Shown here: positions 1,295-44,756 of the stretch, in pieces
Position numbering within the stretch: position 1 is the first letter of the stretch
How the letters are laid out: the number at the start of each line of letters is the position of its first letter
Source of the DNA: a virus
Lineage: Duplodnaviria > Heunggongvirae > Uroviricota > Caudoviricetes
Length of the DNA stretch: 45,230 nucleotides
Virus record (IMG/VR): IMGVR_UViG_2718218139_000011
Strand: one strand, 5' to 3'
Made by a program: the position numbers and the translations under genes
The notes under the pieces: model-generated
The model's input: the letters and a program-made list of their open reading frames with translations, nothing else
The model's database searches: none
What the model was told of the DNA's origin: nothing

Positions 1295-1358
1295 TGAGGT
1301 AGCCTGAGTTTAACGGACACTCCTTCCTGAAATAGAATGGCATCAGAAGGAGCTAATA

Positions 1359-1661
1359 ATGAGCAGAAAAACCCAACGTTACTCTAAAGAGTTCAAAGCC
1401 GAAGCTGTCAGAACGGTTCTTGAAAATCAACTTTCGATCAGTGAAGGCGCTTCCCGATTATCTCTTCCTGAAGGCACTTTAGGACAATGGGTTACCGCCG
1501 CCAGAAAAGGGCTCGGTACTCCTGGTTCCCGCACGGTGGCTGAACTGGAATCTGAAATTCTGCAACTGCGTAAGGCGTTAAATGAAGCTCGCCTTGAGCG
1601 AGATATATTAAAAAAAGCAACAGCGTATTTTGCACAGGAGTCGCTGAAAAATACGCGTTAA
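1359..1661 (+). CDS. IS600 OrfA (HTH transposase N-terminal component)
   Basis: 100-aa ORF MSRKTQRYSKEFKAEAVRTV...; A AAA AAA slippery run at 1610..1616 leads in the -1 frame into orfB. Confidence 0.9.
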   Translation: MSRKTQRYSKEFKAEAVRTVLENQLSISEGASRLSLPEGTLGQWVTAARKGLGTPGSRTVAELESEILQLRKALNEARLERDILKKATAYFAQESLKNTR

Positions 1662-1696
1662 TCGAACAATGGCGACAACAATTTCCCATTGAAGCG

Positions 1697-2515
1697 ATGT
1701 GTCAGGTATTTGGTGTATCCAGGAGCGGTTATTACAACTGGGTACAGCATGAACCCTCAGACAGAAAACAAAGTGATGAGCGGCTAAAACTGGAGATTAA
1801 GGTGGCACATATCCGCACTCGCGAAACATATGGAACCCGGCGGCTCCAGACGGAGCTGGCAGAGAATGGCATCATCGTTGGTCGTGACCGACTGGCACGT
1901 CTTCGTAAGGAGCTAAGGCTACGCTGTAAGCAGAAACGCAAGTTCAGAGCGACTACGAACTCGAACCACAATCTGCCAGTTGCGCCAAATCTGCTGAACC
2001 AGACGTTCGCTCCTACAGCACCAAATCAGGTCTGGGTGGCGGACCTGACGTATGTTGCCACACAGGAGGGATGGTTGTACCTCGCTGGCATCAAAGATGT
2101 TTATACGTGCGAAATTGTCGGCTACGCCATGGGAGAGCGCATGACAAAAGAGCTGACAGGTAAAGCCCTGTTTATGGCGCTCAGGAGCCAGCGCCCACCT
2201 GCCGGGCTAATCCACCACTCTGATCGAGGTTCACAGTACTGCGCATACGATTACCGGGTCATACAGGAGCAGTTTGGTCTGAAAACATCAATGTCGCGTA
2301 AAGGTAACTGTTACGACAACGCTCCGATGGAAAGCTTCTGGGGAACGCTGAAAAATGAGAGCCTGAGCCACTATCGTTTTAATAACCGGGATGAAGCCAT
2401 CTCAGTAATACGGGAATACATTGAGATTTTCTACAATCGTCAGCGTCGTCACTCTCGTCTGGGGAATATCTCCCCGGCAGCCTTCAGGGAAAAATATCAT
2501 CAGATGGCTGCTTAA
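1697..2515 (+). CDS. IS600 OrfB (DDE transposase catalytic component; made as OrfAB transframe fusion)
   Basis: 272-aa ORF in -1 frame relative to orfA; frame open from the slippery site; IS3-family integrase-like sequence. Confidence 0.9.
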
Positions 2516-2558
2516 AAAAAGAACAAATGGTAGTGTCCGCTATTGCCAGTACACCTCA

Positions 2559-3735
2559 CGGTGATGAGCGCACCATCTGTATCCGGGAACCAGCCATGGC
2601 TGTTTGTCTCAATAATGTTTCCCGGCCCCAGACGAAAACGGATTTGTGTCTCCCCCGGGTCGCCCTTCGGTCCCTGAGGTCCGGTTGCCCCCACCGGGCC
2701 AGCCGCACCTGTTTCTCCTTTCGGTCCCTGTGGGCCTGCCGGGCCTGCCGCACCGGTATCTCCCTTTGGACCCTGTGGACCTGCATTTCCCGTCAGACCG
2801 GTCTCTCCCCGCTCTCCCCTGTCACCTTTCGGCCCCTGCGGGCCTGCCGGACCAGCATCACCTGCCGGTCCCCGTTCGCCGGTTGCCCCGACAGGGCCGG
2901 TGTCACCGCGCTCTCCCTTATCACCCTTCGGCCCCTGAGGACCCGCGGGCCCCTGTTCCCCCTTTGGCCCGGGAGGTCCCACCACGGTGGGGATTCGGTT
3001 TACGGCCTCTTCCGCCGCTATCCTGCTTTGTTCCGCTGACTGTGCGCTTTCTGCTGACTCCCGGGCTTTTTCTGTTGCGGTCGTTGCATCCCTGGCTGCA
3101 TTACCGGCTGCACTTTCTGCCGTCTTTCTTGACAATTCAGCTTCTGCTGCACTTTGTAATGACTCACTGGCTTTTTGAGCGGCCGCAGAGGCCGAGGACG
3201 AGGACGCCTCCTCTGACTGCTTTGCAGCGGCTGCACTTTCTGCCGCCTGCCGGGCTGACTCCGATGCCTCCTCTGCTGAAGTATCAGCATTTGCGGCGCT
3301 CGCTTCCGCCTTACTGGCTGATATGCCGGCATTCCTCGCGGACGTCTCTGCTTCTCCGGCATTCTTCTTCGCCTCCTCTGCGTGACGCGCTGCTTCTTCC
3401 ACCATCAGTTCAAAACGACGCAGTGCCTCCGGACGGACGTCATCCTCCGACATGGCACCGAGAAAATCATTCAGCGTCCCCGGTTGAGAATCTTCATACA
3501 CGGTGATGGTCCCGGCATGTGACGGCGGGAATCCTTCCACCAACAGAATGACGCTGTACTGACCGTACTCAACGTCCATGCTGTAACGCCCGGCTTCATC
3601 CGGATTTTCTGAGGCCAGCGTGTTCACCACCACAGTGGTACTGTTACGTTTTGCTTTCAGCTGGATTGTGCAGTTCTGTACCGGTTTTCCTGTGCCGTCT
3701 TTCAGTACACCTGAAATCTTTACTGCCATATTCAC
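2559..3735 (-). pseudogene. stf: Side tail fibre gene (Stf-like, collagen-like Gly-X-Y repeats) interrupted by IS600
   Basis: Track ORF 2512..3735; the last 15 codons ([15 protein letters not shown]) are read from IS600 sequence; N-terminal part resembles lambda-type side tail fibres. Confidence 0.8.
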
Positions 3736-3740
3736 CCCAC

Positions 3741-3767
3741 AAAAAAGCCCGCCTGAACCGGCGGGCT
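3741..3767 (-). terminator. Intrinsic terminator downstream of lom
   Basis: Minus-strand hairpin AGCCCGCC-ggttca-GGCGGGCT followed by T6. Confidence 0.55.
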
Positions 3768-3793
3768 GTCATAACACTGTGTTACCTGGCTAA

Positions 3794-42928: not shown

Positions 42929-43116
42929 ATACAGCATTTGCACTTGTTCTGACAGTTTTTCTTGTTTCCGGAGAGCCAGTTGATATTGCTGTCAGTGTTC
43001 ACAGGACAATGCAGGAGTGTGTGACTGCAGCAACCGAACAGAAAATTCCCGGTAACTGTTACCCGGTCGATAAAGTTATTCACCAGGATAATAACGAAAT
43101 CCCGGCAGGTCTTTAA
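42925..43116 (+). CDS. ydfD: YdfD-like small membrane protein
   Basis: 63 aa MNTAFALVLTVFLVSGEPVDIAVSVHRTMQEC...; ATG overlaps the dicB stop (ATGA); recalled similarity to Qin YdfD. Confidence 0.65.
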   Translation: MNTAFALVLTVFLVSGEPVDIAVSVHRTMQECVTAATEQKIPGNCYPVDKVIHQDNNEIPAGL

Positions 43117-43209
43117 AACAGTTCCGTAATAAACATCCAATTTCATTCTTATATGCCAGCAATGGCAGGGATTTGTTCATCCTTAAATCTGTCATGAGGT
43201 TAAAACAAA

Positions 43210-43420
43210 ATGAGTAAAGTCTTTATTTGCGCTGCCATTCCGGACGAACAGGCAATAAAACAAGAAGGCGCTAAACCTGTAGCCACAGCCATTGAAGCCG
43301 GTGATGAACGTCGCGCCCGCGCAAAATTTCACTGGCAATTCCTGGAACATTATCCGGCTGCTCAGGACTGCGCTTATAAATTTCTTGTTTGCGAGGATAA
43401 ACCCGGTATACCCCGCCCTG
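43210..43420 (+). pseudogene. Early-left operon gene (YdfE-like) truncated by IS600
   Basis: ORF MSKVFICAAIPDEQ... runs into the IS600 left end at 43421 and stops inside it. Confidence 0.6.
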
Positions 43421-43492
43421 TGAGGTAGCCTGAGTTTAACGGACACTCCTTCCTGAAATAGAATGGCATCAGAAGGAGCTAATAATGAGCAG
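43421..43492 (+). mobile_element. Solo 72-bp IS600 left-end fragment, tandem to copy 2
   Basis: Identical to the first 72 bp of the IS (left inverted repeat through the first 8 nt of orfA), followed directly by a complete copy. Confidence 0.85.
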
Positions 43493-43556
43493 TGAGGTAG
43501 CCTGAGTTTAACGGACACTCCTTCCTGAAATAGAATGGCATCAGAAGGAGCTAATA

Positions 43557-43859
43557 ATGAGCAGAAAAACCCAACGTTACTCTAAAGAGTTCAAAGCCGA
43601 AGCTGTCAGAACGGTTCTTGAAAATCAACTTTCGATCAGTGAAGGCGCTTCCCGATTATCTCTTCCTGAAGGCACTTTAGGACAATGGGTTACCGCCGCC
43701 AGAAAAGGGCTCGGTACTCCTGGTTCCCGCACGGTGGCTGAACTGGAATCTGAAATTCTGCAACTGCGTAAGGCGTTAAATGAAGCTCGCCTTGAGCGAG
43801 ATATATTAAAAAAAGCAACAGCGTATTTTGCACAGGAGTCGCTGAAAAATACGCGTTAA
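43557..43859 (+). CDS. IS600 OrfA (copy 2)
   Basis: Identical 100-aa translation to copy 1. Confidence 0.9.
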   Translation: MSRKTQRYSKEFKAEAVRTVLENQLSISEGASRLSLPEGTLGQWVTAARKGLGTPGSRTVAELESEILQLRKALNEARLERDILKKATAYFAQESLKNTR

Positions 43860-43894
43860 TCGAACAATGGCGACAACAATTTCCCATTGAAGCG

Positions 43895-44713
43895 ATGTGT
43901 CAGGTATTTGGTGTATCCAGGAGCGGTTATTACAACTGGGTACAGCATGAACCCTCAGACAGAAAACAAAGTGATGAGCGGCTAAAACTGGAGATTAAGG
44001 TGGCACATATCCGCACTCGCGAAACATATGGAACCCGGCGGCTCCAGACGGAGCTGGCAGAGAATGGCATCATCGTTGGTCGTGACCGACTGGCACGTCT
44101 TCGTAAGGAGCTAAGGCTACGCTGTAAGCAGAAACGCAAGTTCAGAGCGACTACGAACTCGAACCACAATCTGCCAGTTGCGCCAAATCTGCTGAACCAG
44201 ACGTTCGCTCCTACAGCACCAAATCAGGTCTGGGTGGCGGACCTGACGTATGTTGCCACACAGGAGGGATGGTTGTACCTCGCTGGCATCAAAGATGTTT
44301 ATACGTGCGAAATTGTCGGCTACGCCATGGGAGAGCGCATGACAAAAGAGCTGACAGGTAAAGCCCTGTTTATGGCGCTCAGGAGCCAGCGCCCACCTGC
44401 CGGGCTAATCCACCACTCTGATCGAGGTTCACAGTACTGCGCATACGATTACCGGGTCATACAGGAGCAGTTTGGTCTGAAAACATCAATGTCGCGTAAA
44501 GGTAACTGTTACGACAACGCTCCGATGGAAAGCTTCTGGGGAACGCTGAAAAATGAGAGCCTGAGCCACTATCGTTTTAATAACCGGGATGAAGCCATCT
44601 CAGTAATACGGGAATACATTGAGATTTTCTACAATCGTCAGCGTCGTCACTCTCGTCTGGGGAATATCTCCCCGGCAGCCTTCAGGGAAAAATATCATCA
44701 GATGGCTGCTTAA
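43895..44713 (+). CDS. IS600 OrfB (copy 2)
   Basis: Identical 272-aa translation to copy 1. Confidence 0.9.
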   Translation: MCQVFGVSRSGYYNWVQHEPSDRKQSDERLKLEIKVAHIRTRETYGTRRLQTELAENGIIVGRDRLARLRKELRLRCKQKRKFRATTNSNHNLPVAPNLLNQTFAPTAPNQVWVADLTYVATQEGWLYLAGIKDVYTCEIVGYAMGERMTKELTGKALFMALRSQRPPAGLIHHSDRGSQYCAYDYRVIQEQFGLKTSMSRKGNCYDNAPMESFWGTLKNESLSHYRFNNRDEAISVIREYIEIFYNRQRRHSRLGNISPAAFREKYHQMAA

Positions 44714-44756
44714 AAAAAGAACAAATGGTAGTGTCCGCTATTGCCAGTACACCTCA

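Follow-up and report, generated by a model that had tools for sequence, protein, structure and literature searches.

In a Shiga-toxin/attaching-effacing type Escherichia coli (GCA_003015325.1), a lambda-like prophage integrated at serT, with hyaA and yccA on either side, has been hit repeatedly by the insertion sequence IS600: one copy lies as a simple insertion in the side tail fibre gene, and the right end has been rebuilt around a cluster of IS600 sequences, leaving the prophage grounded. We put the probability of this explanation as a whole at roughly 85%. The window, that is, the whole stretch of 45,230 nucleotides that was analysed, contains nearly all of this prophage structure, and the source genome supplies the remainder of the right end. 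The junction sequences are observed directly, and from them we infer the order of the events at the right end.

Locus and gene content

The serT gene lies on the tccP2 side of the prophage. The adjoining tccP2 gene (positions 1–753, plus strand) encodes a 250-aa EspF-repeat protein with proline-rich 141-bp (47-aa) repeats at 256–732, and proteins identical to its product occur in 946 collection blocks. Under the tccP2/Sp4 naming and the definition of TccP2 as an EspF-repeat T3SS effector (PMC2884950), the 47-aa repeats, the locus and the RefSeq name used at the same locus in relatives ('EspF repeat-containing protein') identify the product as a predicted TccP2 effector. It is followed by an intact gene for an 89-aa tail fibre C-terminal domain (Phage_fiber_C, PF06820; 878–1147, minus strand), which is also found in the source contig and in relatives.

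Based on open reading frames, Pfam matches and the gene calls of the source contig, the lambda-like morphogenesis module (3794–23712, minus strand) is apparently intact and comprises lom, J, I, K, L, M and the genes for the tape measure, tail tube, capsid, S49 protease, portal and large and small terminase subunits. The region from lysis to DUF1482 (25157–43209) is also on the minus strand, apart from the cI-like, ParDE and dicB genes on the plus strand; it holds lysis genes, a nanS-like esterase, a Q-like antiterminator, RusA, DUF968, ParDE, replication genes, cro/cI-like immunity, dicB and DUF1482, with three tRNAs at 30793–31042. Pfam profiles were covered over their full length for most of the proteins searched (terminase, portal, S49 protease, capsid E, tail tube, tape measure, lysozyme, Q-like) and in part for the small terminase subunit Nu1, while J, lom, L, M, K and I were taken from the gene calls in the source contig. 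The head, tail, packaging and lysis modules are complete, and among their genes the side tail fibre gene alone is interrupted.

The prophage resembles the Sp4/CP-933M type of tccP2 prophage, known at serT in O157 with relatives in O26, O103, O121 and CC119 STEC. The locus (hyaA-serT ... yccA), the lambda-like morphogenesis genes and the order of the tail-end cargo (lom, tail fibre, fibre-C, tccP2, espV remnant; PMC2884950) are the same in both. In contrast to that type, IS600 interrupts the fibre gene here, a cluster of IS600 sequences stands in place of the exonuclease/DUF4224/integrase/att end, and the early region is a different mosaic, with no match above ~96% identity among 5,426 complete RefSeq E. 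coli genomes.

Two identical IS600 copies bracket the prophage body

Copy 1 (1295–2558, plus strand) and copy 2 (43493–44756, plus strand) were identical at 1264 of 1264 positions by direct string comparison, and self-BLAST of the whole window aligned 1294–2559 with 43492–44757 at 100% over 1266 nt. The repeats are spaced 42,198 bp apart and enclose an interior of 40,934 bp. The initial annotation had described two identical, same-orientation IS600 copies around about 41 kb of prophage; re-inspection for any difference in sequence or orientation returned 100% identity on the same strand, so this description holds. Its inventory of IS600 was correct for both full copies and missed three further IS600-derived pieces beside copy 2, namely a left-end fragment (43421–43492), an inverted fragment (44757–45230) and, outside the window, the remainder of that fragment together with a third full, inverted copy.

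The element itself is 1264 bp long, starts with TGAGGT and ends with CCTCA (5'-TG...CA-3'), and has imperfect terminal inverted repeats that pair as TGAGGTAGCCTGAG... with TGAGGTGTACTGGC.... In copy 1, orfA (1359–1661; 100 aa, PF01527) precedes orfB (1697–2515; 272 aa, PF00665 rve and others), and an A7G slippery site, AAAAAAAG, lies at 1610–1617 (IS600 position 316), where a programmed -1 frameshift is predicted; the equivalent IS600 CDS carries the RefSeq label 'programmed frameshift'. The identification as IS600 was borne out by a score of 334.7 bits for OrfB against the NCBIfam IS3-family transposase model NF033516 (cutoff 160) and by a difference of 1 nt from the copy annotated in RefSeq as 'IS3-like element IS600' in strain 10153. 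In its length, TG...CA ends, orfA and orfB, A7G site and, at copy 1, 3-bp target duplication, the element agrees with IS600 as known; nothing sets the copies apart, and they are ordinary members. IS600 belongs to the IS3 family, was first described in Shigella sonnei and is amplified in non-O157 STEC.

Copy 1 splits the side tail fibre gene in a simple insertion

Copy 1 is flanked by the trinucleotide CGG on the left (1292–1294) and on the right (2559–2561), and a single CGG is present at the empty site in the uninterrupted side tail fibre genes of two related loci (L008 and L009), in which the intact gene encodes 437 aa. Alignment to these genes placed the C-terminal 146 nt of the interrupted gene at 1149–1294, and translation placed its N-terminal 1171 nt at 2559–3729, both on the minus strand. 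The empty site and the CGG duplication confirm the reading that copy 1 interrupts this gene, and copy 1 is a clean, simple insertion of the copy-out/paste-in kind, with duplication of the CGG target.

On translation, the N-terminal fibre reading frame enters IS600 and reaches a stop at 2512, giving a 405-aa product; the exact ATG-start version of this fibre/IS product was called in the source assembly only. Exact look-up returned no match on record for the GTG-start version of the fragment, or for a 64-aa reading frame over the left junction of copy 1. O26 strain 10153 also has an IS600 in its tail fibre gene, considered as a possible instance of the same insertion; it lies 199 bp away and is a different one.

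The right end is a cluster of nested IS600 sequences

The right end begins within an exonuclease gene (YdfE_N, PF27430), identified by its profile and translation, of which the first 70 codons remain (43210–43420, plus strand). This gene was broken by an old IS600 at the target CTG, past which uninterrupted exonuclease homologues run on; the truncated product is 72 aa long, and an exact look-up with it led to the source genome. The old element, here called X, is represented by a 72-bp remnant (IS600 positions 1–72; 43421–43492, plus strand), the left end of the copy that first broke the gene. It is followed by copy 2, with CAG on both sides, and by an inverted IS600 segment running from position 877 down to 403 (44757–45230, minus strand), which is cut by the end of the window and continues to position 70 in the source genome. 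Copy 2 had been described as interrupting an early-left gene; instead, the exonuclease gene was broken by the older IS600, and copy 2 has IS600 sequence on both flanks.

The source genome matches the window at 100% over 1–11729 and 33210–45230. In its contig (locus L005) the cluster consists of X(1–72) at 10212–10283, a full plus-strand copy at 10284–11547, the inverted 877–70 segment at 11548–12354 and a full minus-strand copy at 12355–13618, with yccA at 13754. This third full copy abuts the upstream region of yccA and carries one mismatch (A62G), considered as a mark of a distinct donor lineage and unique among the 12 copies in the loci compared. Put briefly, two full IS600 copies in opposite orientations enclose 808 bp of a third, and the nesting is at CNG trinucleotides within IS600 itself.

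The flanks of copy 2 lie in different IS600 registers and orientations (1–72 forward on the left, 877 downward and inverted on the right), and its two CAG flanks accordingly do not constitute a demonstrable single-event duplication. The junctions X72|IRL and IRR|X70 are both present, the pair that a simple nested insertion with CAG duplication creates; the junction IRR|X877 is likewise present.

Loss of the integrase end grounds the prophage

In the source contig, the IS600 cluster runs straight into the yccA upstream region, with neither an integrase nor a DUF4224 gene. By comparison, yccA in strain 10153 still has beside it the integrase and DUF4224 genes together with the displaced serT 3' part, and in strain 2013C-3492 the locus is taken by an IS-free relative whose exo-DUF4224-int end is intact. 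Set against 10153, the boundary between IS and chromosome falls 71 bp past the displaced 3' serT/att copy, and 3,819 bp are missing. Along with 71 bp of chromosome, the source genome has lost everything in the exonuclease gene beyond the truncation, as well as the integrase, the att site and the excisionase-like DUF4224 gene.

A functional lambdoid prophage has an integrase, an excisionase and two att sites; this set is not present here, and because the integrase and the second att site are absent, the prophage at serT cannot excise. The initial annotation had treated the prophage as otherwise whole, which the missing exonuclease 3' part, DUF4224 gene, integrase and att site contradict. It had called the prophage likely defective for side fibres; the side fibre gene is indeed interrupted, but loss of the integrase end is the stronger reason for defectiveness.

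Proposed history of the right end and alternatives to it

In the history that we propose, X would have come first, into codon 70 of the exonuclease gene; another IS600 copy would then have entered X at positions 70–72 (CAG), and a third, inverted one at X positions 875–877. A deletion anchored on the third copy would have taken out what remained of X and of the exonuclease gene, 71 bp of chromosome and, with DUF4224 and the integrase, the att site. The two full copies, inverted relative to each other, would then have undergone homologous recombination and flipped the 808-bp X piece between them, with the resulting order X(1–72), copy 2 (+), inverted X(877–70), full copy (-) and yccA. Under this history, the identical CAG trinucleotides flanking copy 2 would each trace to a different insertion. 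A simple CAG-duplicating insertion of copy 2 into a pre-existing head-to-head IS junction was also considered and was rejected, since such a target has no natural origin.

In the draft contig of a near-identical strain (L006), X(1–72) is followed by an IS600 right end in the opposite orientation. This junction cannot be derived from the L005 arrangement by recombination alone, because recombination within IS bodies preserves IS-end junctions. The discordance counts against the proposed right-end history.

It is unlikely, on balance, that the inverted arrangement was made in one step, through an intramolecular replicative-type inversion by copy 2 into X positions 875–877. The topology expected from such an event, L-IS(+)-inverted segment-IS(-) with inverted 3-bp repeats (CAG...CTG), is exactly the one found, and one event fewer would be needed; against this, IS3-family transposition is generally known to proceed by copy-out/paste-in through a circle, which leaves the flanking DNA uninverted. 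The one-step inversion and the insertion-plus-flip of our proposed history give the identical end product, with the same sequence either way.

We give little credence to a broader reading, in which a preference of IS600 for targeting itself (4 of 4 datable targets are CNG) or a recombinationally flipping segment, its isomers varying from one near-identical isolate to another as the discordant L006 junction would hint, would together with copy 1 make the tccP2 prophage a hotspot of structural variation. If it were true, programmed-looking structural variation would strip phage functions and fix the effector.

We give very little credence, too, to the right-hand cluster having been created by errors of long-read assembly from something simpler, for instance one nested IS600. 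Nested identical repeats do assemble poorly, and L006 has a different junction after X(1–72); however, the exo::X(1–72) junction is independently confirmed by L006, all of the L005 junctions are clean IS ends with a 3-bp register, consistent with real transposition, and the chromosomal side is placed cleanly in the region upstream of yccA. The same neighbouring genes are also on record in a second contig of >1 Mb, which could be a duplicate deposit of the one assembly.

The simple picture of a prophage that is whole and excisable apart from independent single insertions of IS600 in the fibre gene and an early-left gene is hardly credible: copy 1 fits it exactly and the CAG on both sides of copy 2 would, taken alone, resemble a target duplication, but the IS600 flanks of copy 2, in different registers and orientations, refute it, and the source genome lacks the exonuclease 3' part, integrase and att site. 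A 43.5-kb composite transposon, ended by copies 1 and 2 and moving the prophage body as a unit, has in its favour that both flanking copies are intact and identical and that their transposase genes also look intact. It can be dismissed, since the outer flanks differ (CGG to the left of copy 1 and CAG to the right of copy 2) with no common target-site duplication around the IS-cargo-IS unit, each copy has a separate junction history, and no second site with an IS600-prophage-IS600 unit was found.

Potential for deletion and precedents elsewhere

If copies 1 and 2 underwent RecA-dependent recombination with each other, 42,198 bp would be lost and serT, tccP2, a fibre stub, one IS600 and yccA would stay, while the inverted third copy could equally invert the whole prophage. 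On established IS biology, a deletion between copies 1 and 2 that spares tccP2 is plausible; the earlier expectation that tccP2 would be spared is sound, as the gene (1–753) lies outside the bracket. Both IS-IS recombination and deletions by local hops have been quantified in E. coli, with direct IS repeats documented as deletion substrates and inverted repeats as inversion substrates (PMC5009759); at serT we only infer such outcomes. [quoted passage not shown]

The check that had been suggested, a search of related genomes for a single IS600 at this locus with no prophage interior, yielded no assembly with the copy 1 x copy 2 product, in a lineage for which sampling is small (only 2–3 assemblies carry its junctions). 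The copy 1 junction product was found in two contigs of >1 Mb in the collection (one place shown, GCA_003015325.1) and the exo::X junction in three. None of the 5,426 complete RefSeq E. coli genomes contains the X72|IS, IS|X877 or IS|yccA junction or the copy 1 insertion site. Strains 97-3250 and RM6927, which matched the copy 2 region, carry ordinary nested IS600-in-IS600 insertions at other positions and other loci, and strain 2010C_5028 matched through another IS600 insertion, located at codon 120 of an exonuclease gene that belongs to a different prophage.

Two remnants elsewhere have a comparable form. The complete genome of strain Z1323CEC0019 has serT, tccP2, the fibre gene, an stf stub, one IS1203, an integrase stub and yccA, and is the only 1 of the 5,426 genomes with tccP2 within ~3.7 kb of yccA. 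In the ompW prophage of strain 2013C-3492, the equivalent fibre-gene site has a single IS600 7 bp away, which lacks a target duplication and adjoins ylcI; ~21.4 kb of morphogenesis genes are missing. In both, one IS3-family element (IS1203 rather than IS600 at the serT remnant) joins a tail-fibre stub to distant prophage or chromosomal DNA, no target duplication is present, and the effector cargo beside the fibre genes is kept. In the prophage studied here, by contrast, the body is not deleted, two direct copies still bracket it, and the integrase end alone has been lost. The deletion and structural instability that had been predicted thus have analogues in these IS-junction remnants, but no deletion variant of this lineage was found, and the instability is one that the repeats would lead us to expect.

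Biological meaning

The bracketing of this prophage by IS600 is ordinary prophage decay in pathogenic E. coli, a phenomenon already known. IS600 activity deleted the integrase and att site and thereby immobilised the tccP2 prophage; its side-fibre gene is broken, and it contains several 1.26-kb repeats that can delete or invert it. These features are useful for strain typing and assembly, because IS600 clusters break short-read assemblies and could yield structural variants, and they matter little beyond annotation. The prophage is a further example of IS3-family elements turning effector-carrying prophages into fixed chromosomal cargo.

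The IS600 pair and interruption of the side tail fibre gene

Comparison of the window with itself revealed a single long direct repeat, in which positions 1294-2559 and 43492-44757 match at 100% over 1266 nt on the same strand. Trimmed to the element ends (TGAGGT...CCTCA), copy 1 (1295-2558) and copy 2 (43493-44756) are 1264 bp each and string-identical. They lie 40,934 bp apart; crossing over from one to the other would take out 42,198 bp. Self-comparison and string comparison thus bore out the coordinates, orientation, identity and spacing (about 41 kb) in the initial annotation: the observation is confirmed, while the interpretation placed on it is supported in part. 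The repeated 1264-bp element is assigned to IS600 on its sequence. Its terminal inverted repeats are imperfect, and it carries a slippery site (AAAAAAAG) at IS position 316 as well as an orfA (100 aa) and orfB (272 aa) whose products carry HTH_Tnp_1 and rve domains. OrfB scored 334.7 bits against the NCBIfam IS3-family transposase model (cutoff 160), and a single base separates the element from the copy in strain 10153, labelled in RefSeq as 'IS3-like element IS600 family transposase, programmed frameshift'.

Copy 1 lies in a 437-aa gene downstream of lom that is intact in many genomes, is labelled in RefSeq as 'prophage tail fiber N-terminal domain-containing protein' and stands where lambda has stf. 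In two relatives with an uninterrupted gene (L008 and L009), window positions 1-1297 and 2559-4500 map to adjoining positions that overlap by one CGG, a triplet present on both sides of copy 1 in the window and single at the empty site. The empty-site alignment and the CGG duplication therefore identify copy 1 as a simple insertion that cuts off the 3'-terminal 146 nt of the fibre gene, in agreement with the earlier claim that it breaks a side tail fibre gene. The 405-aa truncated fibre product was found in only two contigs (>1 Mb) of the collection, the one place shown being in GCA_003015325.1.

The 437-aa fibre gene family has received at least three independent IS600 insertions, all in the same orientation (window 1149-3729; strain 10153 locus, L001, 44751-47331; ompW prophage of strain 2013C-3492, L019, 9255-10657). 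Relative to the site in the window, the IS600 of strain 10153 (O26) is 199 bp further in and that of the 2013C-3492 ompW prophage is 7 bp off. The tail end of the prophage (1-4500) has 98-99% identity to O26, O103 and O121 prophages. Within it, tccP2 contains ~3.4 proline-rich tandem repeat units of 141 bp (47 aa) at 256-732; the number of units differs among strains, with one fewer in the remnant locus of strain Z1323CEC0019.

The right-hand IS600 cluster and loss of the integrase end

The main correction concerns the right end, which had been described as a single copy and is instead a multi-copy IS600 cluster from which the integrase/att end has already been deleted. To the left of copy 2, 72 nt (43421-43492) correspond to IS600 positions 1-72; to its right, 44757-45230 correspond to an inverted IS600, from position 877 down to 403, running off the window. 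The prophage exonuclease gene (YdfE_N family) retains its first 70 codons at 43210-43420 and is broken at CTG. This early-left gene, said earlier to be interrupted by copy 2, was broken by an older IS600 (X), the source of the 72-nt remnant.

An exact look-up of the 72-aa truncated exonuclease product returned three contigs, one of them 5.2 Mb long and from GCA_003015325.1. This contig shows no difference from the window at 33210-45230 and, in a second look-up, at 1-11729. Along this source contig (L005), the exonuclease stub is followed by X(1-72), copy 2 as a full IS600 (+), 808 nt of inverted X(877-70), a third, full, inverted IS600, 135 nt of chromosomal DNA and then yccA, tusE, yccX and rlmI; tccP2, an espV remnant, serT and hyaA lie on the opposite side of the prophage. 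The third IS600 (L005 12355-13618, just right of the window) has one mismatch to copies 1 and 2, A62G, near its left end on the side abutting yccA. This base is unique among the 12 IS600 copies in the fetched loci, and could reflect a recombinant origin or a private mutation.

Related prophages of strains 10153 and 2013C-3492 occupy the same hyaA-serT...yccA locus and end in exonuclease, a DUF4224 protein, integrase, a displaced serT 3' copy (the att site) and yccA. The chromosomal sequence adjoining the third IS600 aligns 71 bp past this displaced copy, and 3,819 bp are absent relative to strain 10153, integrase and att site included. With both lost, the prophage is grounded: site-specific recombination cannot excise it, with or without working side fibres. 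The genes for head, tail, packaging and lysis appear to be intact.

Three prophage tRNA genes (30793-31042; Arg-tct, Arg-tcg and a CAT-anticodon tRNA, annotated as tRNA-Ile in relatives) lie between a Q-like antiterminator region and a nanS-like esterase, a position at which stx genes are absent. A ParD/ParE-type toxin-antitoxin pair (34677-35302; PF03693 and PF05016, from source-contig gene calls) is encoded on the other strand from its neighbouring prophage genes. For the early/regulatory mosaic at 30000-43420, none of the 5,426 complete RefSeq E. coli genomes matched above ~96% identity or 72% coverage.

Junctions and proposed history of the cluster

The junctions X72|IRL and IRR|X70 were both found (IRL and IRR being the left and right ends of IS600), as was IRR|X877. 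The first two are the junction pair of simple same-orientation nesting at X positions 70-72, with CAG duplicated, while the left end of the third IS600 meets chromosomal TTG without a matching duplication. From these junctions, we infer a history that is the shortest path using known processes only. X would have entered the exonuclease gene, after which one IS600 copy would have nested within it at positions 70-72 and an inverted copy at 875-877. A deletion anchored on the inverted copy would then have extended past the att site, either by a local hop and recombination between direct copies or as an adjacent deletion, and recombination between the two inverted full copies would finally have flipped the 808-bp spacer. 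The same arrangement would result from intramolecular inversion in one step, which sequence alone cannot separate from the stepwise history; that route is nevertheless improbable, as it is not accepted chemistry for IS3-family elements, which transpose by copy-out/paste-in.

All four readable IS600 targets are CNG triplets (CGG, 1292-1294; CTG, 43418-43420; CAG, 43490-43492; CTG, read as CAG, 44757-44759), two of which sit within IS600 itself. IS600 nested in IS600 at other positions was also seen in strains 97-3250 and RM6927 (L002 and L003).

A draft contig from a near-identical strain (L006, GCA_002486255.1) is identical to the window at 35271-43498. After X(1-72), it continues into an inverted IS600 right end (L006 8151-8299), where the left end of copy 2 stands in the window. 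Because recombination within IS bodies preserves end junctions, the L005 arrangement cannot yield this junction by recombination alone. The junction suggests that structure varies between isolates that are nearly identical, or that the contig is misassembled. It could stem from an independent insertion, from an assembly error, or from a 2,072-bp deletion with its ends at the two G|TGAGGT heptamers, which would fuse X72 to the third copy.

Predicted deletion of the prophage body and its precedents

Since the two copies form direct repeats of 1264 bp without a mismatch, RecA-dependent deletion between them is a fair inference. The predicted product would keep serT, tccP2, the 89-aa fibre-C gene, the 146-nt fibre stub and one IS600, together with the 808-bp piece, the third IS600 and yccA. 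Alternatively, the third, inverted copy could invert the whole prophage. STEC lineages show amplification of IS600, and excision of IS3-family elements, along with deletion of flanking DNA, is promoted by the IS-excision enhancer (PMC9397093; PMC10132054). No deletion derivative of the window lineage was found, in a comparison with almost no power given that its junctions are present in no more than two or three assemblies; these junctions occur in 0 of 5,426 complete RefSeq genomes.

A chimeric query, made by joining window 1-1294 to 5.2 kb from the yccA flank, was used to look for precedents. Among the complete genomes, that of strain Z1323CEC0019 alone has tccP2 within ~3.7 kb of yccA. Its locus comprises serT, an espV remnant, an in-frame tccP2, the fibre-C gene, a ~1-kb fibre stub, a single IS1203 (IS3 family), a 297-nt integrase stub and yccA: the entire prophage interior is lost, with one IS at the junction. 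The 2013C-3492 ompW prophage remnant is a second precedent. There a single IS600, 7 bp off the corresponding point in the fibre gene, runs straight into ylcI and has no target duplication (GTC/CAC); ~21.4 kb of morphogenesis genes are absent and the effector cargo beyond the fibre genes is kept. Events like the proposed IS-mediated body deletion do occur at comparable loci, though none was found in the window lineage itself, and the kind of deletion proposed is not new. What the locus shows is an ordinary and already well described phenomenon in STEC, in which IS3-family elements drive a lambdoid prophage with effector cargo into decay and grounding.
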